Notes: generated by a model from the letters alone, not told the origin. Shown: positions 4,714 to 46,262, counted from the first letter of the stretch. The stretch is 64,000 nucleotides of DNA from Bryobacteraceae bacterium (GCA_035486995.1 DATHMO010000212.1:26476-90475), one strand, 5' to 3'. Program-made: numbers and translations.

Positions 4714-6354
4714 TTAGAATTCCTGCGTGACACGCATCACCTCGTCGGCCGTGGTTACGCCGCCCGCCACCTTCGACCAGCCGTCTTCGCGCAAATTGCG
4801 CATGCCGATGCGCCGCGCCGCATTGGTGATCGCCACCGCATCCTGATTCTTCATGATCAGCTGCCGGATACCGTCATCCAGTTCCATCAGCTCGAAAATT
4901 CCCACGCGGCCGGTGTAGCCCGACCCGAAACATTGCTCGCAGCCCCGACCTTTGTAGCACTGCACCAGGTCGCCATTGGGCGCGAACCGTGAGCCGTCTT
5001 CGCCCTTGCAATGGTCGCAAATGACTCGTACCAGCCGCTGCGCCAGCACCGCCACCAGCGACGATGTAATCAGGTAGTTCTCCACGCCCATGTCGGTCAG
5101 ACGCGAAATCGCGCTGGGTGCGTCGTTGGTGTGCAGCGTTGAGAATACGAAATGGCCGGTAAGCGACGAACGAATCGCGATATCGGCCGTTTCACGATCG
5201 CGAATTTCGCCCACCATGATGACGTCGGGATCCTGGCGGACAATATGCCGCAGTCCCTGCGCGAACGTCAGCCCGATCTGATTATTCACATGCAATTGGT
5301 TAATGCCATCCATCTGATACTCGACGGGATCTTCGATGGTGATGATCTTTTTGTCGGTCTGATTGATCCTCTTCAGCGCCGAATAGAGCGTCGTGGATTT
5401 GCCGCTGCCCGTGGGACCCGTCACCAGAAAAATGCCGTGTGGCAGCGACGTGAAATAGTTCATGCGGCCGAGCATATAGCCGTCGAATCCCAGGCGCCCA
5501 AGATCGTAGAAATCGCCTGCCGATCGATCGAGCAAGCGCATCACGACGCTTTCGCCATACAGCGTCGGCAGCGTGGAAATACGTAAATCCACTTCGCGGC
5601 CGAGCGTCTTGATCTTGATGCGTCCGTCCTGCGGCAGCCGCCGTTCGGCGATGTTGAGCTTGGCCATCAGCTTCACGCGCGAGATCATGGCCGCCTTCAG
5701 TTCGCGCGGCGGCGGATCCTGATTGTAGAGCACGCCATCCACGCGATAGCGGATGCGAAATTCCTTTTCGAACGGCTCCAGGTGAATATCGCTCGCGCGC
5801 TTTTCCACCGCCGATGCGATGATCGCGTTCACCAGGCGGATGACCGGCGCCTCGCTCGCCATGTCGCGCAGATGTTCGAGATCTTCCGACATCTCGCCGG
5901 CCTGGAATTCGAAATCGGCCTCGGAGCGCGCAGCTGCCTCGCCGTAATACTTGTCGATCGCATCTATGATCTCCTGCTCGGGTGCGAGCACAGTGTTGAT
6001 CTTGAGTCCCGTGCAATGGCGCACGGCGGCGATCGTTTCAACATCCAGCGGATCCGCCATCGCGAGCGTGATCGTATGGTCGTCGCGGCTCATCGGCAGG
6101 CAGCGGAATTGGCGCAGGAAGCGCGGGGAAAGCGTCTCGGTCTCGGGAGAAACTACGGGCGGAGCGTCGATCGAAACCAGCGGGATTTGCAATTGCTCCG
6201 AGAGTGCCGCCAGTACGTCGCGCATGGCGATGAAGCCCATGTCGACCAGCGTTTTGCCGAGTTTGTCGCCGCGCTCTTTTTGCAGTTCCAGCGCCCGGTC
6301 CAAATCGTCGGCGGTGATGAGCTTGCGCTGGATTAAGATCTCGCCCAACCGCAT
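4714..6354 (-). CDS. gspE: type II secretion ATPase GspE
   Basis: N-terminal T2SSE_N-like MRLGEILIQRKLITADDLDRALELQ. Walker A GPTGSGKST, Asp/His boxes, and the tetracysteine pair CDHC...CEQC. Confidence 0.92.
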   Translation of the reverse strand: MRLGEILIQRKLITADDLDRALELQKERGDKLGKTLVDMGFIAMRDVLAALSEQLQIPLVSIDAPPVVSPETETLSPRFLRQFRCLPMSRDDHTITLAMADPLDVETIAAVRHCTGLKINTVLAPEQEIIDAIDKYYGEAAARSEADFEFQAGEMSEDLEHLRDMASEAPVIRLVNAIIASAVEKRASDIHLEPFEKEFRIRYRVDGVLYNQDPPPRELKAAMISRVKLMAKLNIAERRLPQDGRIKIKTLGREVDLRISTLPTLYGESVVMRLLDRSAGDFYDLGRLGFDGYMLGRMNYFTSLPHGIFLVTGPTGSGKSTTLYSALKRINQTDKKIITIEDPVEYQMDGINQLHVNNQIGLTFAQGLRHIVRQDPDVIMVGEIRDRETADIAIRSSLTGHFVFSTLHTNDAPSAISRLTDMGVENYLITSSLVAVLAQRLVRVICDHCKGEDGSRFAPNGDLVQCYKGRGCEQCFGSGYTGRVGIFELMELDDGIRQLIMKNQDAVAITNAARRIGMRNLREDGWSKVAGGVTTADEVMRVTQEF

Positions 6355-8056: not shown

Positions 8057-10162
8057 TCAGGTCGTATGTCCGTATTTTCGCATCAAGCCGCGCATGATTC
8101 GCTCGGTGGCGGTGCCAAACGGCTGATCGGTGGTCAGATAGGTCCAGGTGGCGCCGCGATCGGAGGGGTCCATCCCGGCCGCCTCCGCTTCAGTCAATCG
8201 CGTGCCAAGCTCGGGGTCAATTTCGGATTCGAGTTGCCTGAAAAGCGTATGGACCGAGGTCAAATACTCGTGCAGCGGATCGCGGCCGCCCCAGGAAAGC
8301 CACTGGACGCCCTCGCGCAGGTCTGTGATCGTGGCCAGATAATCGGCCCATAGATCGTCTATGTCGCGGAGCGAAACCAGCCGCTCGAAATCGGATGAAC
8401 ACGGTTTCTCGCCCGTCAAAATAGCCTGGCGAACTTGCTGGATCTTCTGCCTCTGGCCCTCGATCACGCTTTCATATTTATGCAGAAAGCGCCGAATTTC
8501 GAGGTTTTGCCCCTCGGCGATGCGCTGGATGTTCTCCACGTCGGGATCTTTGCCGCTCTCACCGCCATATTTCACCAATAAATCGTCCTCGAGCGAGACG
8601 AAGAACTGCGAGCTTCCGGGATCGCCTTGCCGCCCCGCGCGGCCGCGCAATTGGTTATCGATCCGTCGACTTTCGTGACGATTAGTCCCGATCACGTGCA
8701 GCCCGCCCAGTTCGGCCACGCCGGGTCCCAGCCGGATGTCGGTGCCGCGTCCGGCCATGTTGGTTGAGATGGTAACCGCGCCCAATTCGCCCGCGCGCGC
8801 GATCATCGCGGCTTCCTCCTCTTCGTACCGGGCGTTCAGGACCTGATGCGGCATTCCGGTCAGCCGGGCGCTCAGCCGTTCGGATTCCTCGACGCTTGCC
8901 GTGCCAACCAAAACGGGCCGGCCGGTCGAGTGAATCTTGTGGATCTCGCCGATCACGGCCTGCTCCTTGGCCGATCGCCTGCAAAAGACGATGTCGGGCG
9001 CGTCCACTCGAATCATGGGGCGGTTGGTTGGAATCACCTCCACATCCAGCCCGTACACGAGCTGAAATTCGATGGCCTGCGTGGCTGCGGTGCCAGTCAT
9101 CCCGCACACTTTCGGGTACAGCGAGATCAGGTTCTGCAGCGTGATCGATCCCAGAATGCGGCCCTGGGTCTTCAGCGCCAGCCCCTCCTTCGCCTCGATG
9201 GCGGTGTGCAGACCAGCCGGCCAGCGCCGATTCTCAGCGATGCGGCCCTTGAACTCATCGACGGATTCGATGGCGCCGTCCTTCACTAGATAGTCCACGT
9301 CGCGCCGCAGCAGCGCATGAGCGTGGAGGGAATCCTGGACTGCGGTCAACAACGCGAGGTTCTCTTCGTCGTACAAGTTGCCGCAGCCGAACGACGTCTC
9401 GACCGCGCGGATTCCAGCATCGGTGAGTGCCACATTCCGGCTATATTCGTCGAGCGTGAACTGGCGGCCACGGTGAAAATAGCGCGTGAGGCGGTCGACC
9501 TGATTGGCGATCACGTCTGGTCCAGCATCGCCGCCCGCGATCACCAGCGGAATGCGCGCTTCATCGATCAGGATGGAATCGGCTTCGTCAATCACGGCCG
9601 CTGCGAACGGCCGATGCACTTGCTCGCGCGGGCGGAGCGCCAGGCCGTCGCGCAGCAAATCGAAGCCAACCTCGTTGGCGGTGGCATAGGTGATGTCGCA
9701 CGCATAGGCGAGCCGTCGGTCTTCCATCCCCATACCTTGTTGGATGTGCCCGACGGAGAGCCCGAGAAATTCGTAAATTCCGCCCATCCACTGCGCGTCG
9801 CGCCGAGCCAGGTAATCGTTCACCGTCATCACGTGGACGCCTTGGCGCTCTCGCGCGTACCAGGCGATGGCCGGCACCGCCGCCAGCGTCTTGCCTTCGC
9901 CAGTCTGCATTTCGGCGATTTTTCCCGCCGCAAGCGCGAGCGCGCCTTCCAGCTGCACGTCGAACATCTTGAGACCGAGCACACGTTCGGCTGCAACGGA
10001 CGTCAGCGCGAACACATCGGGCAACGGCATCGCGCGCCAATCCGCGGCTCTCAGGTCAGCATCGCTCTGGGCCGCGAATTCCGCGCGACGGTTGTTGATC
10101 AAAGGGAGCAATGATTCGGGCTTAGCCGAATCACGAAAGAGATTCCGCAAGAATTGGCGCAT
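8057..10162 (-). CDS. secA: SecA-family preprotein translocase ATPase, short paralogue (SecA2-like)
   Basis: 701 aa. Contains MFDVQLEGALALAAGKIAEMQTGEGKTL (Walker A), VMTVNDYLARRD, IDEADSILIDEARIPLVIAG and TNMAGRGTDI. It ends soon after the scaffold helix and lacks a C-terminal Zn-finger tail. Confidence 0.9.
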   Translation of the reverse strand: MRQFLRNLFRDSAKPESLLPLINNRRAEFAAQSDADLRAADWRAMPLPDVFALTSVAAERVLGLKMFDVQLEGALALAAGKIAEMQTGEGKTLAAVPAIAWYARERQGVHVMTVNDYLARRDAQWMGGIYEFLGLSVGHIQQGMGMEDRRLAYACDITYATANEVGFDLLRDGLALRPREQVHRPFAAAVIDEADSILIDEARIPLVIAGGDAGPDVIANQVDRLTRYFHRGRQFTLDEYSRNVALTDAGIRAVETSFGCGNLYDEENLALLTAVQDSLHAHALLRRDVDYLVKDGAIESVDEFKGRIAENRRWPAGLHTAIEAKEGLALKTQGRILGSITLQNLISLYPKVCGMTGTAATQAIEFQLVYGLDVEVIPTNRPMIRVDAPDIVFCRRSAKEQAVIGEIHKIHSTGRPVLVGTASVEESERLSARLTGMPHQVLNARYEEEEAAMIARAGELGAVTISTNMAGRGTDIRLGPGVAELGGLHVIGTNRHESRRIDNQLRGRAGRQGDPGSSQFFVSLEDDLLVKYGGESGKDPDVENIQRIAEGQNLEIRRFLHKYESVIEGQRQKIQQVRQAILTGEKPCSSDFERLVSLRDIDDLWADYLATITDLREGVQWLSWGGRDPLHEYLTSVHTLFRQLESEIDPELGTRLTEAEAAGMDPSDRGATWTYLTTDQPFGTATERIMRGLMRKYGHTT

Positions 10163-30738: not shown

Positions 30739-31344
30739 ATGCTAAACCAAGTGCGTTTGGCGCTCGCCGTTTTTTGCGCCGTCCCCGTTCTGGCTGTTCA
30801 GCCGTCGATCCCCTTTACTCAAGTTACTGCCGTCGTAATGCCCAATGGGCGATACTCACGCGTCGCCATAGGCGCCATGGGTCGTGAGGCCGCCCATATC
30901 CTCAAGAAATCCGGCGTCTCCCTCGCGTGGCGCATCGGGGACCCTGGACAGAGCGTCGACGGACTCCTCGTCGTAGTGAAGCTGGTTGGCCGTTGCGACA
31001 TGGATGGGCCGGCGGCGATCCTGAAGGCGGGTCCGCTCGGCTGGTCGCATGAGGCGAATGGCGTAGTGCTCCCGTTCAGCGATTTGGCTTGCGACAATAT
31101 TCGCGGCCAGGTACAGAGCGCTCAGGTGACCGGGAATCCGTTGCGCGGCAATGTGTTGCTCGGTCGCGCGATGGGCCGTGTGCTCGCCCACGAGCTGTAT
31201 CACATTGTTGCGGATACCGCTAAGCACGCTGACGCCGGCGTCACGCAGTCTGGCTTATCGGCACGAGAATTGACCTCCGGGCAGCTCGAATTCCAGCCGT
31301 CCGACGTGGAGGCGATGCGAATTGGCTTGCGCCAGGCGCGTTAG
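30739..31344 (+). CDS. hypothetical secreted protein with HExxH motif (putative zinc metallopeptidase)
   Basis: Signal peptide [19 protein letters not shown]. Contains LAHELYHIV (HExxH). No family recognised. Confidence 0.55.
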
Positions 31345-32039
31345 TGCGCGTGCGAATGGGTGTGTTGCGCGGGCCGGCCCGCAAGATCTTTCACCGTTAC
31401 CACGCGATGTCGCGATTCCACGGGCTGGCTCATTTGTTGCCGCACCCAGGCCGTTAATTCGGGAACGCCCAAGCCTGCGCGCAGATTTGTGAACAAAAAA
31501 GGGCGATCGCCGCGCATTTTGCGCGCGTCGCGATCCATCACGTCGAGCGAGGCTCCCACATACGGCGCGAGATCGATCTTATTGATCACCAGTAAATCGG
31601 ACCGGATGATTCCCGGACCGCCCTTGCGCGGAATCTTGTCGCCGCCGGCGACGTCGATCACGTAGATTGATACGTCCACCAGCTCCGGGCTGAACGCCGC
31701 AGCCAGATTGTCGCCGCCGCTTTCGATGAAAACGAGTTCGAGGCCATGGTGCAGGTGCTCCAAGCTTTCGATTGCTTCGATATTCATCGACGCGTCTTCA
31801 CGGATGGCCGAGTGCGGGCAGCCTCCAGTTTCTACGCCAGTGACTCGATCGGCTGGCAGAGTTCCCTGGCGGATCAGAAATTCCGCGTCCTCGCGCGTGT
31901 AGATGTCGTTGGTGACGACGGCCAGGTTCACCGAGGGCCACAAGCTCTGGCTCAGAACATGAACGAGGGCCGTCTTGCCACTGCCGACCGGTCCGGCGAC
32001 GCCGATTCGAAAAGCGCGATGCGTGTGATTATGGCTCAT
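31341..32039 (-). CDS. ureG: urease accessory GTPase UreG
   Basis: [15 protein letters not shown]-loop and a SIMIBI-type body. His-rich ends MSHNHTHR... and ...HTHSHAH. Confidence 0.92.
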
Positions 32040-32042
32040 AAA

Positions 32043-33761
32043 TCAGAACAGAAAGTAGCGTTGCGCCAGCGGCAGAACGCTGGCCGGTTCGCAAGTGAGA
32101 AGGTCGCCATCGGCGCGGACTTCGTACGTTTCTGGATCCACTTCGATCTGCGGCGTGGCCGAATTGTGGATCATGTCGGCCTTTCCGATCTGCCGGCAGT
32201 TTTCGACGGGTACCAGACGCTTCTTCAACCCGAGCGTTTCGACATGCGACAGCGACGCCAACGAAATAAACATTACGCCGGTGGATTGCGGCGCTGCGCC
32301 GAAGGATCCGAACATTGGCCGATAGAGCACCGGCTGCGGCGTTGGGATCGACGCGTTCGCGTCACCCATCACGCTCCACGCGATGAATCCGCCCTTGATG
32401 ATCATTTCCGGTTTGACGCCAAAGAAGGCCGGGCTCCACAACACCATATCCGCGAGCTTGCCGGTTTCGATGGAGCCAACTTCGTTCGCAATCCCGTGTG
32501 CGATGGCCGGGTTGATGCTGTACTTCGCGACGTAGCGTTTGATGCGCTGGTTATCGCTACGCGACGAATCGCCCGCGAGCTGGCCGCGCTGCACCTTCAT
32601 CTTGTGCGCAGTCTGCCAGGTGCGCGTCACCACTTCACCGATGCGCCCCATGGCTTGTGAATCGCTCGACATCATGCTGATCACGCCAAGATCGTGCAGA
32701 ATGTCTTCGGCCGCAATAGTCTCCTGCCGGATGCGGCTTTCGGCGAAAGCGACGTCTTCGGGAACCTGCGGATTCAGGTGATGGCAGACCATGAGCATGT
32801 CCAAATGCTCGGCGATGGTGTTCACCGTGAGCGGTCGCGTTGGGTTCGTTGACGACGGAAGGATGTTGGGAAGCCCGGCGATCTTGATGATGTCCGGCGC
32901 ATGGCCGCCGCCCGCGCCCTCGGTGTGATAAGTGTGGATCGTCCTGCCGGCAATGGCCGCGATAGTGTCGTCGACGAAACCCGCCTCGTTCAGCGTGTCG
33001 GTGTGGATGGCGACCTGGACATCGAACTCGTCTGCCACGCGGAGGCAGGCATCAATGGCCGCGGGGGTCGTGCCCCAATCCTCGTGCAACTTCAGGCCGC
33101 ACGCTCCGGCCAAAACTTGTTCGGCCAACGGATCGCGCGCCGACGCATTTCCCTTCCCGAGAAACCCGAAGTTCATTGGCCAGCCTTCGGCGGCGCGAAA
33201 CATCTGCTCCAGATTCCAACGGCCGGGAGTGCACGTCGTCGCATTGGTGCCCGTCGCAGGGCCCGTTCCACCGCCGATCATCGTTGTAGTTCCGTTCGAC
33301 AACGCTTCGTAAATCTGCTGTGGCGAGATGAAATGGATGTGGCTATCAATTGCGCCGGCAGTCAGGATTTTGCCTTCGCCCGCGATCACTTCGGTAGACG
33401 CACCGACAACCAGCTCGGGATCCACGCCCGCTTGCGTATCGGGATTTCCGGCCTTGCCGATTTTGACAATGCGGCCGTTGCGAACCCCAACATCGGCTTT
33501 CACAATGCCCCAATGATCGATAATCAGCGCGTTAGTTATCACCAGGTCGAGCGCGCCGTGCTCGGATTCACGCGTTGCGGTGGAGCTTTGGCCCATGCCG
33601 TCGCGAATCACTTTGCCGCCGCCGAACGTGATCTCGTCGCCGTAGACGGTGTAATCCTGCTCCACTTCAGCGATCAATTCGGTGTCGGCCAAGCGGACGC
33701 GATCGCCACGTGTGGGTCCATATAAATCGGCGTAAGTGCGGCGCGGGATCTTCGCGCTCAT
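32043..33761 (-). CDS. ureC: urease alpha subunit
   Basis: 572 aa. Contains [35 protein letters not shown] and MVCHHL, which are the canonical UreC nickel-site motifs. Confidence 0.95.
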
Positions 33762-34069
33762 TTGTGCAGAGCTCCGTTCACTGTTCCGTTGTGTCCATGC
33801 ACGGCTCGGCGGCCAGCGAGCGCCACCAGCGGAACTTCTTTTTCTTCGCCCGGCTCAAAACGAATCGCGGTACCGGCTGCGATATCCAGGCGCATGCCGT
33901 AAGCCGCAGAACGATCGAAATCGAGCGCGGAATTCACTTCATAGAAGTGATAGTGGCTGCCCACCTGCACTGGCCGATCGCCACGGTTGCTGACGACAAT
34001 CTGAGCCGTAGCTCGGCCGGCGTTCACTTCCACATCGCCCTCGTCGAGAAAATATTCACCCGGATGCAT
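33758..34069 (-). CDS. ureB: urease beta subunit
   Basis: [19 protein letters not shown]...[27 protein letters not shown] overlap with ureC. Confidence 0.92.
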
Positions 34070-34077
34070 AGAGGCTC

Positions 34078-34380
34078 CTATTGAATCGGATCGTGAATCG
34101 TGACCAGCTTGGTGCCGTCTGGAAACGTGGCTTCCACTTGCACTTCGTGAATCATCTCGGCGATGCCGTCCATGACGTCCGCGCGGGTGAGAATGGTTGC
34201 GCCCAGGCCCATGATCTCGGAAACGCTTCTGCCATCACGCGCCGCTTCCAGGATCTCGGCCGAAAGGATTGCCATGGCCTCCGGATAGTTCAGCTTCAGT
34301 CCGCGCGCGCGCCGCTTTTTCGCCAATTCAGACGCGACGAAGATCATGAGCTTGTCCTGCTCGCGCGGAGTCAGATGCAC
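34078..34380 (-). CDS. ureA: urease gamma subunit
   Basis: Track ORF trimmed to the GTG at 34380, preceded by AAGGAGG. The 100-aa product (M)[34 protein letters not shown] is the canonical UreA. Confidence 0.9.
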
Positions 34381-34397
34381 CGGCTGCCCTCCTTCAT

Positions 34398-35243
34398 TCA
34401 ATGAACTTTTCGGGGAAGCGTGGCGACTCGGCCACGGAGAATCCACTTGGCGGCTTTCCAAATTTCCACCAAGCCGCCCGCTAGCGAACGCCCGCTGACC
34501 GCGAGACCGCGAATCGCGAGACCGTGCGCCCGTAGCGACGTCACTCCCCATAATACTTCAGCGCTCGTAAGTTGATCAGCAACTGTCTGCATTTGCGCTT
34601 CGAAAGTTTTCCAATAGGCGGACGGCTCGCCCGCGCGGCAGATATAGCACGAGGCAAAATGGCGAAACGGGCCGAGGCGCGCGATGGAATCCATACGTTG
34701 AATCAACGGCGCCAGCGTCCAGCGTTCGATCGCGATCGGCTGCCCGTCGGCCATTAGTTCAAAATCGGAAGTGAGCGATTCAAAGCGGAAGATTTCGTCA
34801 GATGCTTCGCGGCCGGGCGCCACGCGGTCGCACCAAATCAGCGAGCCGCCACGCTCGATCTCGACGCGCGTCTTTTGGTCGAAGCGGGAGCCGGCAAATG
34901 GTATCAACTGGTCGGGTAAGTATTCCAAGTACGCATCCGAAGCGATGCTGACTCGCATGCACTGGGATGCACGGCTGCCCGGCGATCGGCTGCGATACAC
35001 GCGAGTGGCGCCGGTGGACGTTACCTGCGCTTGAGCGTGCGGACCAACGTCCACTTGCCACGAGAGCGCATCCGTGTCGAGGATTCCGCCCGAGAGATTG
35101 TGCACGTGAGCGAGAGTCTCGCCCGTAGGGGCAGGAAAACCTCGCACCACGCGCCAGGGGGGCTGCTGTTGCTTGACGCGAAGAATGGTCGCGCCGGCGT
35201 CAGTCGCTTCGAAAGACAAGTGGAGATTTGATGATGGCGTCAT
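34398..35243 (-). CDS. ureD: urease accessory protein UreD
   Basis: 281 aa. UreD/UreH-like pattern ([17 protein letters not shown]...[11 protein letters not shown]). Sits between ureF and ureA. Confidence 0.85.
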
Positions 35244-35246
35244 CAG

Positions 35247-35900
35247 TCAACTCATGAAGAGGCGCGTATAGAGGCTGGCGTGTCGAGCTGAAGCGAGGTC
35301 CGCGAGAGGCGTGAAGCAGCTGGTTTGGCGTGGTCCAATGGAGGGGCTCTGTTCCGCGATTTGGACGATCGCTGGTTTCAAGCTCCAAAGAATCTGGTGC
35401 GCTTGCGTCTGGCCGAGCGGGAGCAAGCGCTGGCACGCGGAGACCAGAGCGGTGATGGATTGTTGGAGGTACGCCGCGGCGGCCGTTGGAGCATCGATCG
35501 CAAAAACGCCTGCGGCCAAACCAAAGCACGGCGCTAAGTGAACTTCTCCGCCGAGTTCGGACGCGGAGAGCAGCAACTCGTCTCCCGATATATTCGCGGC
35601 TAGCCGCAAGAAGCGCCGGCCCATCGCGGCCGAGGCATCGCGGGATTCGCGGGCCAATTTTCGCGCGCCGAGTTCGGCGTTCCAACAGAACCAATCGTGA
35701 ATGGCCGCGCCACAACTTGCCGCGCAGTAGGCCGCTTCCAGCGCACCGGTTTCGGACAGATAATCCCGCAAGAAAGGCTCTAGAGTTTCGGTGGTTAGAA
35801 ATCCCGCATCAACCAGCGATTCAAGCCCGAACGAATGCGCCGCGCCTCCGATGGGGAACGCACTATCCGCGAGCTGCTGGAGCTGAAGTAGTGGCAGCAT
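35247..35900 (-). CDS. ureF: urease accessory protein UreF
   Basis: Start set at ATG 35900 ([30 protein letters not shown], the canonical UreF N-terminus). ATGA overlap with the upstream gene stop. Confidence 0.85.
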
Positions 35901-37525
35901 CACGCAAAGAGATACTGCACGTCCTCGGGCAACGGGTCGCACGCCGCCGCTTCATCCCAGCCGAGCTCGGCGCGAACGACGTCGAAGAATGCGCTGCGAT
36001 TCACATCTTGCCCTTGCAGCCGGCTGGCGAGAATGTCCGCCGTAGCAAGATTGCTGCTCGCGGCGACGTAGCCCGCATTCGAAATCAAATCGTAATTGCC
36101 CCAGCGGCTGCGATAAAGCCCCTTTCGATTCCATCTCACAGCCGAATACAGGGCCTCGTCGATGCCGACGAGCGGGAACAGCGCGCCGTAAAGCTTCGCA
36201 AGATCACAACACACACGCGCGAAATAAGTGATGTTCGGCCCATGCCAGGCCGTGCGCAACGGATCGGGGATCAAACCGAATAAATTCGATATCGCAAGGC
36301 GCGTCGGTCCTTTGAATTTGGCAAAGCTGATCATCGGGCAGCCGGCGTATTGGAGCAGCACTTCTGGAACGTTGTCTTGATTGCATGCGCCGTCCCAGTA
36401 GGCTTCAGTGACGTTGACGTACTCGGCGTGGTGCTTGTTCATGACGTCAGCGAGGCCAGTGCGGCGCAAATACTCGGCGTCCTGTTGCCGGATCCAGGCG
36501 CGATGCTCGCGCGCCTCGTGCTCCCAATCGAATTTCGCCTCTTCGACGTTTCTCGACGATGTGTGGCCTTCGAGGATGATCGCAGGCGCCGGCAGAGCCC
36601 GCAGCAAAAGATCGAGCGCGGCTGGGTCAGTATACGTGCCGGTGGCATAACCGTGCCACGTTACTTTGACGAGCACGCGCTCGGGATTCCCCGGCGGCAG
36701 AACCTGTTCCAGCACGCTCGCCATGCGGCCGCAATCCCGTACGGAGGCGATCACGCCAGCGCCCACGGTCCACGACGCCGACTCGGCGGCAACGCTTCGT
36801 TTTGGCGAAGCAACCCGTACAAATTCCCGCGCACGCTTCTCGTTCCATAATCGCGTGATCCGCTGCGTGAGCCAGGCCGTGATCGCAGGATGATCGCCCG
36901 GCGGTTCTGCCATCCGCCACGCGGCGGCTTCCGGATGATCGCGCTGAAAGTTCTGCAGAATCACTTCCGTAAATTCGACGTGCTCGGTTCGCCATAGCGC
37001 TTGTGCAAGCACCACCCAATTCAGAGGACGCTGCGCGCATTTTCCAAGCGTATGCGCGAGAAATGGTTGCGCATGCCGAACGAATCCCACTTCGCCCGCG
37101 GTGAGGCTCAACCGTTCCCAAATTAAGCGCATCAGCCGATAGCTCTGCGCGCGGCTGCCCGCGTCGCCGTGTCCGCTAGCCGCGAAGATTAGTCCGGTGG
37201 CGGGACCCACTCGGTCGGCCAGAGCTTCCACGAGTAACGGATGGCCGGGATCGACGTCGTCATGATGTATAACAAGCGCCGGTTTCGCGCGGCGTGCTTC
37301 GCCAATGGCACGGCCCAGCGCCTCCCGCTGGAGCAGGTTGAAATCGAGCACGGTGGGAAGCACGAAGATCTCGCCTGAATCGCGAGCAGAGATCGCGGCC
37401 GATAACGCCTCGAACGATGTCGCTTCGATCGCCGGGCGGAAACCGAGAATCGGCTCACATGCCGCAGCCAGCGCATTCACGTCCCAACGCGGAATATCCG
37501 TAACGAGAATGAACGCTGGGGTCAG
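35900..37525 (-). CDS. two-domain protein of unknown function: CbiX-like (chelatase-fold) N-half + DUF362-like C-half; start codon unresolved
   Basis: The ORF is open from 37729, but its first ~68 codons are the out-of-frame overlap with the ureohydrolase gene. The N-half shows two CbiX-like half-repeats (AFILVTD...[11 protein letters not shown] and [27 protein letters not shown]...[10 protein letters not shown]). The C-half shows [24 protein letters not shown], which looks DUF362-like by eye. The stop overlaps the ureF ATG. Domain calls need HMM confirmation. Confidence 0.6.
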
Positions 37526-38673
37526 TGCAATCTCCCGCCGATCCGGCCGTGCTTGGTCATCGATGCCAGCACGTCCACCATTGCGCGCACGGCAACCAGC
37601 GCGGTTATGTCCGAAATATCGTAGGGCGGCGAGACCTCCACCGCTTCCATGGCCGCGATGCCCTCCTTGGCCACGCCTTTCAAAATCGCGAGAGCCTCGC
37701 GTGGGAGGAAACCGCCGGGCTCGGGCCATCCGGTTCCGGGGACAAATCCGGCATCTACTGAGTCAACATCGAAGGAGAGATACACGGCGCTCGCGCCTTT
37801 CCACGCCACTTCCAGCGCGATCTCGATTGTCTTGTCGATCCCGATGCGTTCGATGTCTTGAATGGTGAGAACCGTCGATCCGCGCTCACGGCCTTTCTTC
37901 ACACCCGGCCGCGGCACCTGCCAACCGCCGATGCCGACCTGCACGAGATTGGTCGGCGGGCAATTCGGAATATTGGTCGCGTGGAACCACGGACAAGTAT
38001 GCATAATCTCGTCCATGTCTTTTTCCTGCGTGTCGATGTGGCGGTCCAGGTGAATAATGCCCACCTTGCCTTCGATGCATTCCGCCACTCCGCGCGCGCA
38101 TGGAAAGCCGATGGAATGGTCGCCGCCCATGATCATCGGCAGCGTTCCTTGCGACAGAATATGCGCGACGCCCTTTGTAATTTGATCGTGACTCTTGGTG
38201 ATGTTGGCGGGGCAAAAGATATCGCCCACGTCGCACATCTTGAGCGACTCGCGCAGATCCACGCCGAGCTCGAAGTTGTAAGTGGTGTACAGCGACGAGA
38301 TGCGGCGGATTCCTTGCGGCCCAAAACGCGTCCCGGCGCGGTAGGTGGTCCCGATATCGAAGGGCACACCGACAAAAGCTACGTCGTATTCACCCACCTT
38401 GCGCACGTCTTCCAGATACGGCGTTTTGAGAAACGTGTTGATGCCGGACCAGTGCGGCAGCTCGCCGCGTTGGAAACAACTGATCTCGCTTTTGTCTTCG
38501 ATCGAATCGACGCATTCCAGGCCGAATTCCTTGCCGCGCCGGACTTCTTCCTGCCATTGGCGCGATGGAATCTGGCCCTCATCCCGAAGCGCTTTCATGC
38601 CTTCGAGTTCGGGGAGTTTCACTTCTCTGGTGTGCTCCCGATGATTCGGGGCATGGCTCTTGTAGAAGGACAT
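37522..38673 (-). CDS. arginase-family ureohydrolase (agmatinase / guanidino-acid hydrolase / guanidine hydrolase-like), long form
   Basis: 383 aa. All metal-ligand motifs are present: GGDHSIG, HLDRHIDT (D-x-H-x-D) and SFDVDSVDAGFVPGTG. It has an N-terminal extension of about 70-75 aa relative to classical ~300-aa agmatinases. Confidence 0.9.
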   Translation of the reverse strand: MSFYKSHAPNHREHTREVKLPELEGMKALRDEGQIPSRQWQEEVRRGKEFGLECVDSIEDKSEISCFQRGELPHWSGINTFLKTPYLEDVRKVGEYDVAFVGVPFDIGTTYRAGTRFGPQGIRRISSLYTTYNFELGVDLRESLKMCDVGDIFCPANITKSHDQITKGVAHILSQGTLPMIMGGDHSIGFPCARGVAECIEGKVGIIHLDRHIDTQEKDMDEIMHTCPWFHATNIPNCPPTNLVQVGIGGWQVPRPGVKKGRERGSTVLTIQDIERIGIDKTIEIALEVAWKGASAVYLSFDVDSVDAGFVPGTGWPEPGGFLPREALAILKGVAKEGIAAMEAVEVSPPYDISDITALVAVRAMVDVLASMTKHGRIGGRLH

Positions 38674-38700: not shown

Positions 38701-39585
38701 CTAGGCTTCAGCGGCGTCCACTTCTTCAGTGCGGAGGCCGTCGGGGAAGGTGCTTTGTTCAACGCGGCGGATGAGACCGGCGATTCTTTGTTCGTCGCAA
38801 CCATCCGGCACGGGGAGATCCAAGACGATATTCGCGCCATCGTCATCGCCGCCCGTGCGGCCAAGCGCAATCACACGTGTGGCCAGGATCACCGCTTCGC
38901 GCGGATTGTGAGTCACGAACAGTATGGTGGTTCCAGTTTCGCGCCAAAGATCCTTGATGAGCCGCTGCATTCCCAGTCGCGTTCCGGGATCGAGTGCGCT
39001 GAAGGCTTCGTCCATCAGGAGAACCTTGGGGCGCATAATGAGCGCCTGTGCAATCGCCACGCGCTGCTGCATGCCGCCCGAAAGCTGGTGCGGATATTTG
39101 ACGGCGTCCGATTCGCGCAGACCCATGCGACGCAGATATCCGAAGGCTTCCGCTTGAAACTCCTGGCGGCGCACGCGGCGGGCGGGAGACAGGCTGCCGA
39201 AGAATCCAACCTCGGTGACTTCGAGCCCGAAGGTGATGTTTTCGAGGACCGTGCGGTCCGGGAACAGCGAGTATTTCTGCGGCACATATCCGCAACGGCG
39301 GTCGGGCCGATGGCGAGGGCTGCCTTCCACCAGCACTTGGCCGCTCAAGGGCATTTCCTCGGCGAGCACCAAACGCAGCAACGTGGATTTTCCGCAGCCG
39401 GTTTGTCCGACGATGGAGATAAACTCGCCGGCAGTGATGTCCAGACTGACGCCGTTCAGAATATTCCGGGCGGGTTTGCCGGCCTGGCCATACGCAACAT
39501 GAACGTCCTGGATCGAAATCATGGCAGGCCCGCGTTGTGCCGCTGCCGCAGGTTTGTCGTCCATGATCGTTGGTACTGTGGCCAC
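38701..39585 (-). CDS. ABC transporter ATP-binding protein (NitT/TauT family)
   Basis: Walker A GQTGCGKSTLL, signature LSGGMQQRVAIAQAL, Walker B LLMDEAFSALD. GTG start 6 nt after the permease stop. Confidence 0.9.
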   Translation of the reverse strand: MATVPTIMDDKPAAAAQRGPAMISIQDVHVAYGQAGKPARNILNGVSLDITAGEFISIVGQTGCGKSTLLRLVLAEEMPLSGQVLVEGSPRHRPDRRCGYVPQKYSLFPDRTVLENITFGLEVTEVGFFGSLSPARRVRRQEFQAEAFGYLRRMGLRESDAVKYPHQLSGGMQQRVAIAQALIMRPKVLLMDEAFSALDPGTRLGMQRLIKDLWRETGTTILFVTHNPREAVILATRVIALGRTGGDDDGANIVLDLPVPDGCDEQRIAGLIRRVEQSTFPDGLRTEEVDAAEA

Positions 39586-39591
39586 GCTTCC

Positions 39592-40449
39592 TTACGCCTC
39601 CTGGAACCAGGGATGCAGCTTCCGGTTCAACGTGCGCATTCCGAAATCCACCAGAAACAGCAGCAGCGCCACCCACAGCACGTAAGGAATGATCGTATCC
39701 ATTCCCATGTGGCGGCGCAGCAGAGCGATGCGATACGCCAAGCCGTCTTGCGAGGCGATCATTTCGCCGGCGAATAGGAACAGCATCACCGACTTCAAAT
39801 TGAGACGGATGCTATTCAACACGCGGGGCCAGATTTGTTTGAACACGATCCGGTAAGTGATGGCGAAATCACCCGCGCCCAACGTGAAGCCCTTCACGAT
39901 CTGCTCCTTGGGCACGCCTCGTGTGAGATTGAACGAATCCAGGATGATGGTCGGTGCGACTCCAACCACGATCAACATCACTTTCGCCAGCTCGTCGATC
40001 CCAAACGCGATGAAGAGAATGGGAAGCAGCGAGAGCGCGACGATTTTGTCGAAAAACAGAACGAATCGCAGAAAAACCGACCCGACGTATGGGAACATCC
40101 CCATGTGCAACCCGAGCAGGACCGCTGGAAATAGCAGCGCCATGCTGATCAGGAAGCGCCGCCCCGTGGCCATCGTATCTTTCCACAACATGCTGTTTCG
40201 AATTTTCGTGGCCAACGACTGCTGATTAGGATCGCCTGTCACTTCGTCGTCCTCGGCCGGCTTCAACGTCGCGTCGGCGAAAGCCCGGCCCATTTGATAA
40301 AGCGTGGGCATCACTCGATCATCCGGATTTTCCAGATGGCGGGCGCGCGACACCCAGAGGTAACTCACGATTCCAGTGGCGAACAAGAGCCAGGAAAGAA
40401 TCCAGACCGTGGTGCGGGATGGCTGGGCATGAATCTGCAGGATGCTCAC
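39592..40449 (-). CDS. ABC transporter permease (NitT/TauT family)
   Basis: Track ORF trimmed to the GTG at 40449, which overlaps the SBP stop (GTGA). 285 aa, about 6 TM segments, EAA-like loop LGAGDFAITYRIVFKQIWPRV. Confidence 0.85.
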   Translation of the reverse strand: MSILQIHAQPSRTTVWILSWLLFATGIVSYLWVSRARHLENPDDRVMPTLYQMGRAFADATLKPAEDDEVTGDPNQQSLATKIRNSMLWKDTMATGRRFLISMALLFPAVLLGLHMGMFPYVGSVFLRFVLFFDKIVALSLLPILFIAFGIDELAKVMLIVVGVAPTIILDSFNLTRGVPKEQIVKGFTLGAGDFAITYRIVFKQIWPRVLNSIRLNLKSVMLFLFAGEMIASQDGLAYRIALLRRHMGMDTIIPYVLWVALLLFLVDFGMRTLNRKLHPWFQEA

Positions 40450-41519
40450 AGCTTGCCTCCAGCGGCGAGCTCCATGTAGGACGCGTCGAACCGCAATCGC
40501 ACGCGATCCTTCTTGCCTTGCACGGAGCCATCGGGGAAGCGAATCGCCACGTCGTCCGGCGAACTGGTTTTGTCGCCCAGCAATCCATGCGAGAAACAGA
40601 ACTGCCGCACCAGCTCCATGGTCTTTTTCAGTTGCTCCGACTTGGTCATCTCGAGCGCGGAGGGCGCGGTGTAAAACAAGTGCGTGGTCGCAAGTTGCTC
40701 CTTGTACGAAGCCAGGGTGTCTTCGGAGACTTCGGCGATGGACGAAAGCACCTTGTCGCCTTCCGGCCCCGGCTTGGCCATTTGCGCCGTTAGTTCGTAC
40801 CATGCGCCAGCGATCGCTTTCGCGAAGCGTTGCCCGGACCCATCCGGCCGATTCAGCACTTCGGTGCGCACCACCATCAGGTCCAGAATTTCTCCAGGGA
40901 TCTTCGAAGAATCGAAGATCTTGGTGATCCCTTTGCCCTTGAGGATTTGCGAGACCAGCGGCTTCCAGGTGACCACAACATCCTGGCTTGTATCGCTCAG
41001 GAATGCGCCCGCGATGTCGGAATCCGACGTGTTCACATACTTCACACGCTTCAATTCGCCCGAGAGATTGTTAATCGTCATCGCGCGCTCAAACAAGTAT
41101 TGCGAGACGGTCTTCTCCACCAGCAGAACGCGCTTACCTGGGATCTGTCCCAGCGTGAGATTGTGGCGCACCAGCACCGCGTCGTTCCCGTTCGAATAAT
41201 CGCCAACGATGATGGACGTGGTATCGACGCCCGCCGCCGCTGGCATATCGAGCGCCTCCATGTTGGTCATCGCGCACGCGTCGATGTTCTTAGCTACGAA
41301 TGCATCCAGCGACGGCGCGTAGTCGAAGCGCTGGACCTTGATGGCGACGCCGTATTTGTCCGCCCACTTCTTCAGCAGCCCGGACTTGGCCATATACTGA
41401 TACGGGTCCCAGCCGACGTAAACGGACCATCCGAGCGTGAAAGTCGGCGGATTACCGGCCGCGCGCAAGGCGCCCGACAGCAGAAACAGCGCGGGTAAAA
41501 TTAGGAGGAATTTTCGCAT
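40446..41519 (-). CDS. ABC transporter periplasmic substrate-binding protein (NMT1/NitT-TauT type; resembles the urea/guanidine-carboxylase-associated SBP family)
   Basis: Signal peptide MRKFLLILPALFLLSGALRA. Contains FTLGWSVYVGWDPYQY...KKWADKYGVAIKV...CAMTNMEALDMPAAAGVDTTSIIVGDYSNGNDAV. Confidence 0.85.
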   Translation of the reverse strand: MRKFLLILPALFLLSGALRAAGNPPTFTLGWSVYVGWDPYQYMAKSGLLKKWADKYGVAIKVQRFDYAPSLDAFVAKNIDACAMTNMEALDMPAAAGVDTTSIIVGDYSNGNDAVLVRHNLTLGQIPGKRVLLVEKTVSQYLFERAMTINNLSGELKRVKYVNTSDSDIAGAFLSDTSQDVVVTWKPLVSQILKGKGITKIFDSSKIPGEILDLMVVRTEVLNRPDGSGQRFAKAIAGAWYELTAQMAKPGPEGDKVLSSIAEVSEDTLASYKEQLATTHLFYTAPSALEMTKSEQLKKTMELVRQFCFSHGLLGDKTSSPDDVAIRFPDGSVQGKKDRVRLRFDASYMELAAGGKL

Positions 41520-41573: not shown

Positions 41574-42206
41574 TCAGTATATCGCAACGAGCTTGATTCC
41601 AACCGCCGCGCTCGCTCGGTCGCCTTGCTTATCTTTTTCCTTGTCCTTTTCGCCGCGCAGAGCCTTCTCGATTGCCACCGCCAGCTCCGGGGAATCGGGC
41701 GCCACGTCAGGCTCAAAACGCTGCACGATCTTGCCCTCGCGATCGGCCAGAAATTTCGTGAAATTCCAACGGATGGGTCCACCCGTGCTGGGATTGGCTT
41801 GCTTGTCCGTTAGAAATTGATACAGAGGCGATATGTGCTCGCCGGCGAGCGAGAGCTTGGCGAACATCGGGAACGTGACTTTGTATTTACCGGCGGCCAG
41901 CTGCTGAATCGCGTCGTTGCCATCGGGCTCTTCCTGGCCAAAATCGTTGCTCGGAAACGCGAGAATCACCAGCCCCTGGTCTTTGTATTTTTCGTAGAGC
42001 GCTTCCAGGCCCTCATACTGCGGCGTGAAGATGCTGTGGCTGGCAACGTTCACGATCAGCAGCACCTTCCCGCGATAAGAAGCCAAGGGCGCCGGTTTGC
42101 CGTCGATCGCGAGCGGAATGTAATCCAGAACCGTGGTGGCGCCGAGAAACACGCCACTCATGGCAAACAGGATCGCGGCTAGAGCGCCAACGCGGCTAAA
42201 ACTCAT
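41574..42206 (-). CDS. glutathione peroxidase-fold protein lacking both conserved cysteines, membrane-anchored/secreted
   Basis: GPx motifs LLIVNVASHSIFTPQYEGLEALYEKY, AFPSNDFGQEEP and WNFTKFL. The peroxidatic position is Ser (AGC, 42033-42035) and the FPCNQF Cys is also Ser. N-terminal hydrophobic segment. Start ATG 42206 overlaps the upstream gene by 11 nt. Confidence 0.8.
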   Translation of the reverse strand: MSFSRVGALAAILFAMSGVFLGATTVLDYIPLAIDGKPAPLASYRGKVLLIVNVASHSIFTPQYEGLEALYEKYKDQGLVILAFPSNDFGQEEPDGNDAIQQLAAGKYKVTFPMFAKLSLAGEHISPLYQFLTDKQANPSTGGPIRWNFTKFLADREGKIVQRFEPDVAPDSPELAVAIEKALRGEKDKEKDKQGDRASAAVGIKLVAIY

Positions 42207-45200
42207 ATCGAAGTGCGAACTGCATTTCACGCGGCGGCATCGTGTTTTGATATTCGCCGAACTGCGTCGGATTTTGCAACGAGAGACTCGGCTGGATGAA
42301 GTTTACATTATTAAACGCGTTGTACGCTTCCGCCCGGAACTGGATGCTGTGTCCTTCCCAAGGTAGCGCGAAAGACTTCGCAACCCCGATATCGAAGTTC
42401 TTCATTCCTGCCAGGCGGACCAGGGCCCGCTCTCCAGCCGCCGACCCCGGGTAGCCATCCGCAAAACTATTAGCCGCGTTTGTGCTGCCGAACACGCTTG
42501 GATTGCCGCTGCTATCGTAGCCATTCTGCACCCTGTAAGAGCCGGTCGCGATTGCGAGAGTACCCTGCCAGTAATTGACATCCCAGGTTTGATTGCCTTG
42601 AACCACGCTCGGCAGCCCGCTTGAGAATCGCATGATGCTCGAAACCTGCCAGCCCCCGAAAATCTCGTTGGCCCAGCCCGGAGCATTATTCCAGAACGGC
42701 TTGCCCTTACCAACCGGGAGTTCATACACCACGTCGATGTTGGCCTGATTACGGATATCGAAATCCGACGATCCGCGGAATTGGCCGGGGTTGAAAATAT
42801 TCTGAATCACCGCGCCATCCTGACCGGAAGAGCCTTCGGCAGCCGACGCATTATCGATGGAATGGGACAGCGTGTAGTTGAAGTCGAAGGAGAGGCCGGA
42901 ACTGAAAGCGCGCCTCACGCTGACGGTGCCGGCATTGTAATTGGCATCGCCCGCATTCATCCACGTCGGCATCGAACTTCCTTGCGGGGCGAAAAACGTA
43001 TAGCAGCCGAACTTAGAAGCGCAAGTGCCGGGCGCGGTGTATTGGCCAGGAATGCGGTCCACCGAGTGCAGCATGTCCAGATAGCTGCCTCCGTACACTC
43101 CGTAAATGCCGTAAAAGTAGTTCGCAGAGGCGCTGCCCGGGAAGAAAGCGTTCTTGACGGCCGCGAACATATCCTGAATGTACGGGTTGTTGGGCACCAG
43201 CGAAGGATTGGTCATTACGGCCTGTGCCGCGGCGCTCGGGCTGCAGTTCTGCGTATAGTTACCCATCGATGCACAGATCGAGTTGTAGGTATTCCGGATC
43301 GACGTCATGCTCGTCGTCCAAGTCTGGCCCGATCCTGGATCGTATAGATTCTCAAGCGGCGTGTACACGTCGCCCTGCAACAGCAACTTGCGAGAAAGCC
43401 TGCCAGCATACGATACTTCCAGCGTCATCTTGCCTGGTATTTGGCGCGCGAACGACGCATTCAGCAGGATCGAGTAGGGCGACTTCAAGTCAGGATAGAT
43501 TCCCTGAAACTCGCCGACGATTCCGTTGACGTCCGGCGGGGTGTAGGGAAAGCCCGTCGTTGGAGCGGCTGGAAGAGTCGGCACACTTCCGTTGTAACGC
43601 GGTGAGGTCGTATAAGTATAAGAGACCGGATTGTTCAGCGTCGTCGCCAACCCGAATGAACCGAACTGATCGAACTCGGTGATCAATTCGCTGCCAAAGC
43701 GGTCGTAAAGCATCGCGCCGCCCATCCGGAAGACGCCGCCGTTTCCAAAGATGGCTTGCATCAGACCGCCGCGATCCTTGGGACTGTAGGCCAGAGCGAA
43801 TCGCGGTCCGAAGTTGTTATCGTCGGGATTATACCAGCTCGACTTGCCGTTCACCGGGCCGTTCGGGCTGTAGCTCAGGATCGCATTGGGCATGGCGTTG
43901 GAAGGAACGCCCTCCGCTCCCAATCCGACGCGCTGGGCGAAATATTGATCGAGGCCGATGTTGGGAGCCACTTGCAGCCCATTCGCCTCGTAGGGCGGCG
44001 GGTCGTTGGTATAGCGCAGCCCAAAGGTCAGAGTCAATTCGCGCGTGGCACGCCATTGATCGCTGAGGAACCCTTCATACTCGCGCATTACGAACGCTCG
44101 AACATCGGGTGCGCCTTGCGGCAACAGCGTGCCGCCCTTCCCCACCTGGTAAGTAACTTGTACATTGTTGACCAGGCCGAGCAAAACTCCCATCGCGGAC
44201 GCAACTGCGAACGGGTTGCCAAGCGCGAAATTCGCATTGCCGGTCTGGCCGATCATGTAGTTCTGCACATCGGTCTGAATGTCTTCACCCAATCCCACTG
44301 CCACGTTCGCGCTAAATCCATAGGTTGGATAAGAATTCGCGTAGGTGAATTTGTTATTCGTCATCACTCGGAAATTGAGACCCGTGCTGATGGTGTGCTT
44401 GCCCTTGGTCCAAGTGAGAGTGTCGACGATATTTTTGACAGGCAGAATTCGTCCATTGCCGCGCGCAAAGTAGTTCTGCAGCTCGTCCAATGGGTACAGC
44501 TGGAAGGAGTCGCCAGTTGTTCCTGAGTAATTCAAGCCCTGGCGAGTGTAGCCAAAGGTTAGGCTGTTGATCAAAGTCGGCGTCAGAATGGCGGTATATG
44601 TCGCCGAGATGCCCTTGCTGTTGTTCAGGAGCTCACTGGCGGGTTGCTGGCTGGGAAATTGCGCCAAAGCAGTGGGCTGATCCTGATTCGCATTCGACAA
44701 TGTGCCGCGAACCGAAACCGTGTGCTTCGCCGCGCTATCGAGGATAAAATCCATTTTGCCCACGTAGGCGCGATTATCCAGCGCATCCGGCGCGTTGAAG
44801 CGATATCCGGTGAAATTCAAGCCGCCATCGGATTGCCCCGAGTTACCGCCGCCCCCGTAATTGGGGTCGTTGCCCACCGGGTATTGATTCAGAATGTTGA
44901 GATATCCCTGATTCACGCCGATGTGCAGAGGATCGATTGCCTGGATCTGAGCAGGACCAAGCGTATAAACGTTGTTGTTGGCGTCGGAAAACGTTAGGAT
45001 GCCTTGCTTCAGACTTTGGCTAGGAACCAGGCGCTCCACCGCTTGCGAGCTCGCGTCGATGCGGCGCTCGTAGTTGAAGAAATAGAAGATGCGATCCTTC
45101 TTTATCGGCCCGCCCAGCGATGCTCCGAACTGGTTGCGGTTGAGAGGTGTCACCGGAACACCGTCGCGATCGTTGAACCAACTGTTGGCCGCGGTAACCG

Positions 45201-46233: not shown

Positions 46234-46262
46234 ATTATCACTTCGTTCAGAAGCTCTGTCAA
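46234..46262 (-). promoter_or_regulatory. sigma70-like promoter TTGACA-N17-GATAAT upstream of the TonB-dependent receptor gene
   Basis: On the minus strand, TTGACA lies at 46262-46257, then a 17-nt spacer, then GATAAT at 46239-46234. It sits in the only large (280 nt) intergenic gap of this block. It predicts a leader of ~200 nt before the ATG at 46029. Confidence 0.45.

Follow-up and report, generated by a model that had tools for sequence, protein, structure and literature searches.

GdmH-type guanidinases are hydrolases whose dependence on nickel (Ni) has been recognized only lately. These enzymes convert guanidine to urea and ammonia (PMC12186494; PMC11410670) and require Ni; in cyanobacteria, they reach full activity only with dedicated Ni-loading proteins. 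In Synechocystis, gdmH is carried on a single transcript with ghaA and ghaB, which encode HypA/HypB-like maturases that insert Ni into the cyanobacterial GdmH (PMC12704784). In a comammox study, no chaperone could be identified for the N. inopinata guanidinase, and the heterologous enzyme was under-metallated (PMC11410670). Here, we analyze gene X, found in a 64,000-nucleotide (nt) stretch of DNA from a Bryobacteraceae bacterium (GCA_035486995.1 DATHMO010000212.1:26476-90475), referred to below as the window; positions are counted along this stretch unless another locus is named. Gene X (35900–37525, minus strand) encodes a predicted protein of 541 amino acids (aa), in which a chelatase-like domain is fused to a DUF362 domain, and lies directly 3′ of a gdmH orthologue. 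Judged by sequence comparison, X is a real, conserved protein-coding gene and a fixed genomic partner of gdmH. In the clade to which the window belongs, it apparently starts at a CUG codon. We put at roughly one in two the probability that X is a GdmH-dedicated accessory factor, probably for the assembly or upkeep of the metal center.

Among the closest described counterparts of X are GhaA and GhaB. The cyanobacterial maturases are encoded directly 3′ of gdmH and near a guanidine ATP-binding cassette (ABC) transporter (PMC12704784); X occupies the same slot, and X-type loci have no hypA/hypB-like gene. The resemblance, however, is positional only. X is a single chelatase-like plus DUF362 polypeptide, with a role that is only proposed here, and it has no sequence or fold relation to GhaA/GhaB. 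In Pfam and NCBIfam scans, it showed neither a HypB/CobW-type GTPase domain nor a HypA zinc-ribbon (the HypA zinc finger).

Accessory factors of metalloenzymes are a known kind of gene; the architecture of X and its pairing with gdmH have not been described previously. Literature searches found no paper tying a guanidinase to CbiX or DUF362 and none on guanidine, Acidobacteria, and guanidinase combined, and the papers found on DUF362 assign it no function. X is a concrete candidate for the Ni loading of GdmH outside cyanobacteria, unrelated to GhaA/GhaB and strictly linked to gdmH. If true, this role would be the first functional assignment for DUF362, and the X family, which occurs in soil Acidobacteriota, Myxococcota, and Verrucomicrobiota, could improve the heterologous production of active guanidinases.

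Association of Gene X with gdmH

In the window, X belongs to a compact row of minus-strand genes that reads ABC transporter, gdmH, X, ureF, ureD, ureA, ureB, ureC, and ureG. The gene immediately upstream of X (37522–38673, 383 aa; Pfam Arginase, E = 3e-75) had been described as a ureohydrolase. Among solved structures, it comes closest to Synechocystis Sll1077/GdmH (7esr/7oi1, E = 1e-150) and the N. inopinata guanidinase (9fek, E = 4e-150); both alignments span ~358 residues and run end to end. By these alignments, the arginase-family "ureohydrolase" is orthologous to GdmH, the Ni-dependent enzyme that hydrolyzes guanidine.

Gene X is not the orphan that the preliminary description of this DNA had taken it for. 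Of the candidates scored in a search of 5.8 billion proteins, 831 were homologues at E ≤ 1e-3. The taxon-named matches among them come from Bryobacteraceae metagenome-assembled genomes (MAGs), with annotations such as 'hypothetical', 'CbiX/SirB N-terminal domain-containing', and 'sirohydrochlorin ferrochelatase'. When 1.84 billion representatives of 50%-identity clusters were searched exhaustively with HMMER, 263 matched, and ~10 of these are full-length fusions at 43–61% identity; the others include stand-alone C-domain and N-domain proteins. Among named sources, full-length X was found in Bryobacteraceae (Acidobacteriota), Polyangiaceae (Myxococcota), and Terrimicrobiaceae (Verrucomicrobiota). 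A tblastn search of plasmid records with X gave no match.

The association with gdmH is constant: X adjoins gdmH in ~90 loci from at least three phyla, some without urease genes nearby, and gdmH stands beside X in every locus where the N-terminus of X is visible. All 10 Bryobacterales genomes compared (10/10) keep the order transporter-gdmH-X-ureFDABCG. In relatives at ~68% identity (L011–L013 and the contig of P0074), a reversed TonB-type outer-membrane gene splits X from ureF, and gdmH and X remain joined. Along the same lines, the divergent full-length X proteins of L097–L100, only 41–44% identical to that of the window, adjoin a GdmH orthologue that is 76–87% identical, and the same adjacency is seen in L101, a 6.9-Mb genome, and in L102, from Polyangiaceae. 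Three of these loci (L099, L100, and L102) carry gdmH-X without a urease operon in the fetched DNA, and gdmH–X overlaps of 4 nt are frequent in this divergent group. Within Bryobacterales, X proteins are 72–90% identical vs. 95–99% for GdmH, indicating that X evolves much faster than its partner. No HypA, HypB, or UreE genes were found in the annotated relatives, and no tetrapyrrole biosynthesis genes lie near X in ~100 loci.

The surroundings of the most divergent full-length X, in L097 (1127–8854; 41.7% identity by tblastn), deserve a separate mention. Three tandem M28 peptidase genes lie 5′ of this X gene, and a convergent gdmH orthologue lies 3′ of it; M28 peptidases are dinuclear zinc enzymes.

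A Putative CUG Start at the gdmH–X Junction

Read mechanically, the open reading frame (ORF) of X runs from an ATG at 37729–37727 to the TGA stop at 35902–35900, comprising 609 codons open throughout, in the −1 frame relative to gdmH. The first 68 codons are simply the alternative frame of the gdmH 3′ end (an overlap of 208 nt). Past the ATG at 37729, the first canonical start codon (ATG, GTG, or TTG) in this frame is the GTG at 37480–37478. Between these two codons, a CTG (37525–37523) located 6 nt past GGGAG forms a CTGA junction (37525–37522) with the gdmH TGA. Measured from this CTG, the nearest canonical starts are 68 codons upstream and, downstream, the GTG at codon 16. At the other end of the gene, the X stop overlaps the ureF ATG (35900–35898), and an in-frame GTG lies at 35903.

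The preliminary description had reported this frame with its 208-nt overlap, the gap in canonical starts, the CTGA junction, and the overlap with ureF. It had also argued that the GTG at 37480 would cost the protein its first strand. Each of these points was borne out by our analysis. CTG is the only conserved start candidate, and neither the ATG at 37729 nor the GTG at 37480 is conserved across the clade. In the AlphaFold model, PAFILV is strand 1 of the first lobe (residues 4–8; predicted local distance difference test score, pLDDT, ~83 for this block), and the family alignment retains this strand in all distant homologues. Starting at residue 16 would delete strand 1 and break the fold. Gene callers all mis-annotate X, yielding products that are short by 10–105 residues or extended into gdmH.

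We compared the junction in 10 genome loci and 80 fetched metagenome loci, defining the window's clade by an X protein identity of ≥70% (39 loci, 38 distinct sequences). The CTGA, its CTG in frame with X, is found in 39/39 clade loci. One extra clade member has a low apparent identity from assembly frameshifts, and two loci have a five-codon insertion past the CTG. The last gdmH codon of the clade is CAC (21 sequences), CGC (16), or TAC (1), with C as its third base in 38/38 distinct 3′ ends even though the amino acid differs; in the same sequences, the His at −9 is encoded by CAC in 17 cases and CAT in 20, and the Arg at −7 mostly by CGG. The gdmH stop is TGA in 38/38 clade sequences vs. 13 TGA, 11 TAA, and 10 TAG among 34 distinct sequences outside the clade. 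With A, G, or T instead of the C, the codon would become a canonical start, and in the His and Tyr codons of gdmH a T would not alter the amino acid. That the C is never replaced by any of the three suggests selection for a weak start.

Codons 2–10 of X (T-P-A-F-I-L-A/V-T-D) vary synonymously in the clade, with all four ACN codons and a variety of CCN, GCN, and CTN codons, which marks the stretch as translated. In 18 of 37 clade loci, the X frame contains no canonical start from its upstream stop up to the CTG. Six loci (L006, L007, L030, L034, L041, and L042, four of them within the 37-locus set) have a TAA two codons before the CTG; the intervening codons are ACT, followed by GTA, GCA, or TCG, which are not near-cognate starts, and the 17 to 105 codons that follow the CTG in these loci include no canonical start. 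Across the clade, the first canonical start downstream falls anywhere from codon 11 to codon 106. Relatives at 55–69% identity have an ATG or GTG at the equivalent position (e.g., TAATG in L011; GTG in L067 and L075), and in distant phyla gdmH and X overlap through GTGA or TTGA (NTGA overlaps in L100, L101, and L102). Other clades have gdmH–X spacers of 2–96 nt, with an ATG or GTG of their own.

Because the CTGA is invariant, codons 2–10 are constrained, a TAA precedes the CTG in several loci, relatives place an ATG or GTG at the same point, and strand 1 requires it, CUG is apparently the start of X in the window's clade, as the best-supported and sole conserved candidate. On comparative grounds, this is a well-supported and unusually clean case of a conserved bacterial CUG start, a rare occurrence. 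In light of the 4-nt stop–start overlap, we propose termination–reinitiation: ribosomes that have just terminated on gdmH would probably reinitiate at the CUG, and the weakness of this codon would keep the amount of X per GdmH low. The junction resembles known NUGA overlaps, such as M. tuberculosis uPPE2–PPE2, in its 4-nt stop–start overlap and in having no strong independent ribosome-binding site; it differs in that N is C, hence CUG, which the M. tuberculosis study treats as a non-start (PMC11260477).

Two other readings of the junction were weighed. Automatic annotation begins X at the GTG at 37480, giving a 526-aa product (P0001), and the conservation upstream of this codon would then be non-coding or accidental. 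We regard this as very improbable: the GTG is a GCG in L010, an 87%-identical relative, the first canonical start shifts between codons 11 and 106 within the clade, and codons 2–10 are under clear protein-level constraint and form a strand retained in all distant homologues. Alternatively, ribosomes could slip by −1 at the gdmH UGA and read the CUG as Leu, which would generate a GdmH–X fusion. Stop suppression with a frameshift fusion has been reported at an M. tuberculosis AUGA overlap (PMC11260477), CUG is a poor initiator, and X does lie in the −1 frame relative to gdmH. However, the junction lacks a slippery site, and the gdmH end, AAA CTG CAC TGA, does not allow re-pairing in the −1 frame. 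Nor did a conserved RNA structure turn up near the junction or downstream of it. The upstream TAA closes the X frame in six loci, and the spacers and dedicated ATG or GTG codons of other clades make X a separate protein there. No natural fusion of ~920 aa exists among 150 representatives, and slippage leaves the obligatory C in the first position unexplained. A fusion is accordingly improbable, and initiation at the CUG is the reading that we retain.

Individual loci showed further irregularities near the start of X. In L001 (~10025–10070), an in-frame 12-nt tandem repeat, GTTAGCGATCAG (SDQV x3), directly follows strand 1, implying that the loop behind this strand tolerates insertions. In L058 (5970–6030), which is 66% identical, the stretch from the end of gdmH to strand 1 lacks canonical starts and in-frame CTG codons alike; the locus has its first canonical codon, a TTG, at +10, and another non-canonical start or an assembly error could be the cause. 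In the long-read MAG loci L008, L009, and L010, X, ureB, and ureC match in fragments and with lowered apparent identity, which is consistent with assembly frameshifts.

Domain Architecture and Conservation of X

The AlphaFold model of whole X (pLDDT 85.9) has three parts, i.e., an N-domain built by two four-stranded β/α lobes (residues 1–236; 36818–37525), a disordered linker (residues 237–249; 36779–36817) with a pLDDT <50 for residues 237–248 and variable in length in the family alignment, and a C-domain (residues 250–541; 35903–36778). The sequence from the window scores just under the Pfam cut-offs of both CbiX (PF01903; 21.3 bits vs. 22) and DUF362 (PF04015; 20.6 bits vs. 24, E = 5e-4). 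The CbiX-like and DUF362-like assignments made earlier are therefore weak on the window sequence, and they became firmer through the family profile, the predicted fold, and transitive homology.

In a Foldseek search, the N-domain matched SirB (6jv6/5zt7-9; E = 6e-8, target template modeling (TM) score 0.70, probability 1.0, ~14% identity), with further matches to DR2241, ferrochelatases, and CbiK; the SirB structures include Ni2+ and Co2+ complexes. Similarly, the X family profile matches the SirB sequence with E = 8.8e-6 and covers both lobes, and N-domain-only relatives of X exceed the CbiX cut-off (P0157, 51.7 bits; P0177, 34.8 bits). The N-terminal half is, according to the model, a class II chelatase fold in degenerate form. 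X thus shares the two-lobed α/β fold of SirB and the long CbiX proteins but differs from them in its low identity, its variable ligand positions (mapped as described below), the lack of a tetrapyrrole context, and the fusion to a 290-residue DUF362 domain. DR2241 of Deinococcus radiodurans (PDB 2jh3; Foldseek E = 6e-7) likewise combines a chelatase-fold domain with extra domains; however, the match apparently stems from the chelatase part (TM ~0.3–0.37), and the extra domains of DR2241 are not DUF362. An HHDDVDPGH patch pointed out in the preliminary description is present in the window's N-domain, but of its residues the first Asp (D89) alone shows no variation across the family.

The C-domain, modelled alone with a pLDDT of 95.3 and a predicted TM score (pTM) of 0.93, is the best-conserved part of X and holds most of the family-invariant residues. 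Across 43–100% identity, ~60 C-domain positions are invariant or nearly so, including H291, E319, H321, K405, H428, C440, E457, and D479. Stand-alone C-domain relatives, which match X with E = 1e-30 to 1e-40, pass the DUF362 cut-off (P0163, 39.6 bits; P0171, 41.0 bits; P0179, 38.4 bits), and PF04015 is found in all stand-alone C-domain matches bar one (P0276). By transitive homology, the C-terminal half of X belongs in DUF362. The stand-alone DUF362 proteins, from archaea and candidate phyla, are 28–36% identical to the C-domain of X and have E319, K405, H428, and E457 in common with it, but are without the chelatase-like half, and their genes do not adjoin gdmH. The unknown protein encoded 5′ of one stand-alone DUF362 gene has no similarity to the X N-domain.

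DUF362 and the LarA N-terminal domain are members of one Pfam clan, CL0471 (PMC11770544). A LarA-like similarity of the C-domain, expected from this clan, was not confirmed structurally in the PDB fold search. The C-domain profile found no match among PDB sequences, and the single X sequence found just a chance match, to a SnoaL-like protein (E = 0.016). X gave no UreE family match at E ≤ 0.1.

Proposed Function and Alternative Explanations

We propose that X is an accessory factor dedicated to GdmH, which would assemble or maintain its Ni center and do the job that GhaA/GhaB do in cyanobacteria; X itself lacks an NTPase domain. This proposal builds on the position of X in the ghaA/ghaB slot, the chelatase fold, the translational tie to gdmH, and the apparently low amount of X. 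A link between X and a Ni enzyme had been suggested in the preliminary description and is plausible, but the partner is GdmH and not urease, given that gdmH and X stay joined where ureF is separated. A more specific form of the proposal is possible but less likely than not, namely that X represents a new, NTPase-independent class of metallocenter assembly factor that loads Ni into GdmH, an arginase-fold enzyme, with its dosage set in one Bryobacterales clade by an obligatory CUG start coupled to the termination of gdmH.

Several observations weigh against assigning X this accessory role and against the start on which part of the argument depends. CUG initiates poorly in bacteria (PMC11260477). 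When the chelatase ligand positions were mapped onto SirB by eye from the alignment, without structural superposition, the corresponding His proved variable (H119, in SGHGD, is H, D, E, Q, N, A, S, or R), and the residue that follows strand 1 is mostly an Asp (Asp/Glu, not His). The N-domain conserves instead D89, G118, G120, D121, R125, Y129, R133, and H151. As the mapped His is not conserved, CfbA-like chelatase chemistry is not indicated. The C-domain model has no match by fold in the PDB (best E = 0.017, TM ≤0.31), and its many invariant polar residues are more suggestive of an enzyme or a cofactor site than of a chaperone. Stand-alone DUF362 relatives (L094–L096) reside in gene contexts unrelated to guanidine or Ni. 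N. inopinata uses GdmH without a known chaperone (PMC11410670), and an accessory factor may be non-essential. Finally, we infer the Ni role of X solely from gene position and fold.

The conserved C-domain brings up the main alternative, that X is an enzyme of guanidine-related metabolism with a catalytic DUF362 domain, e.g., one that releases guanidine from a substituted guanidine or processes a by-product. The ~60 invariant or near-invariant positions would fit such a function, as would the Pfam clan that DUF362 shares with part of an enzyme, the N-terminal domain of LarA (PMC11770544), and the evolution of X as a unit with gdmH, in the manner of pathway enzymes. Nonetheless, we consider a catalytic role unlikely: transporter, GdmH, and urease already complete the route from guanidine to ammonia (PMC12186494), the DUF362 literature gives no catalytic function for any member, the weak CUG start suggests that little X is required, and the C-domain has no fold match to any enzyme in the PDB.

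The preliminary description had also raised the idea that X stands in for the missing UreE as a urease accessory protein. In the window, X directly precedes ureF, the stop of one overlapping the start of the other, the locus lacks a ureE, and the order gdmH-X-ureFDABCG is kept in 10 Bryobacterales genomes. Yet the reversed outer-membrane gene of L011–L013 and the P0074 contig separates X from ureF rather than gdmH from X, the gdmH–X pair occurs in other phyla without urease genes nearby in the fetched DNA (L099, L100, and L102), and the window's UreG has His-rich tails. Such tails could take the role of UreE in urease maturation. There is little chance, then, that X is a UreE substitute. Least probable, and close to negligible in our estimate, is that X truly acts as a chelatase for sirohydrochlorin or another tetrapyrrole, as annotated by the Joint Genome Institute (JGI). 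Source names such as 'sirohydrochlorin ferrochelatase' say so, and SirB is the top match by both fold and profile; however, identity to SirB is ~14%, the metal-binding positions mapped by eye are not conserved, no locus has tetrapyrrole genes nearby, and the linkage to gdmH is invariable. Among the functions considered, we therefore favor that of an accessory factor of GdmH.

Neighboring Genes and Other Features of the Window

The ABC transporter genes 5′ of gdmH (38701–41519, minus strand; Pfam BPD_transp_1 and ABC_tran) encode a binding protein, a permease, and an ATPase, the binding-protein gene occupying 41519–40446. They probably form a guanidine importer, and the same arrangement 5′ of gdmH was found in all relatives compared; the cyanobacterial analogue is the guanidine transporter encoded by gimABC (PMC12704784). 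The mechanical permease ORF (39592–40803, minus strand) overlaps the binding-protein gene by ~358 nt, and the permease probably starts near ~40440, because its Pfam domain is found only from there on.

On the other side of X, ureF (35247–35903, minus strand; Pfam UreF, E = 9e-30) starts at the ATG at 35900 or the GTG at 35903. It is followed by ureD, ureA, ureB, ureC, and ureG (31341–35243, minus strand), identified from Pfam matches (UreD, cobW) and translations, without a ureE and in an order kept in 10 genomes. For the operon as a whole, we infer that guanidine is imported and split by GdmH into urea and ammonia, and that the urea is then hydrolyzed by urease. No HypA, HypB, UreE, NikR, or Ni transporter came to light when the remaining main ORFs of the 64-kb window were surveyed with Pfam. 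No guanidine riboswitch was detected at the Rfam gathering score across the whole window or at E ≤ 1 between 37400 and 46500.

Within the urease genes, UreG (31341–32039, minus strand) is His-rich at both termini (MSHNHTH... and ...HTHSHAH). Rfam 5_ureB_sRNA matches the plus strand at 33307–33606, antisense to ureC, with 94 bits vs. a gathering score of 40; the match probably reflects coding conservation of the urease alpha subunit rather than a genuine small RNA.

In Bryobacterales, a glutathione peroxidase gene lies beside the transporter/gdmH cluster both in the window (41574–42230, minus strand) and in L013 (4213–4836), and another is found near the Polyangiaceae cluster (L102, 12607–13125), making this a recurrent association. 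In L013, a 2-oxoglutarate (2OG)-Fe(II) oxygenase gene (4874–5902) lies immediately 5′ of the transporter-gdmH-X cluster. Release of guanidine is known from enzymes of the 2OG-Fe(II) oxygenase superfamily, and the L013 enzyme could be a local source of it. Farther upstream in the window, a near-consensus sigma-70-type promoter (46234–46262, minus strand; TTGACA-17-GATAAT, 11/12) is located 5′ of a gene for a TonB-type outer-membrane protein of 1277 aa (46029–42196). This gene overlaps the next one, and a transcription unit may thus extend from the promoter to ureG.

At the opposite end of the cluster, a gene convergent to ureG (30739–31344, plus strand) encodes a secreted-looking protein of 201 aa with an HELYH motif and without a Pfam match. 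An unannotated gene of 192–201 residues occupies the same position after ureG in L011, L012, and L013.

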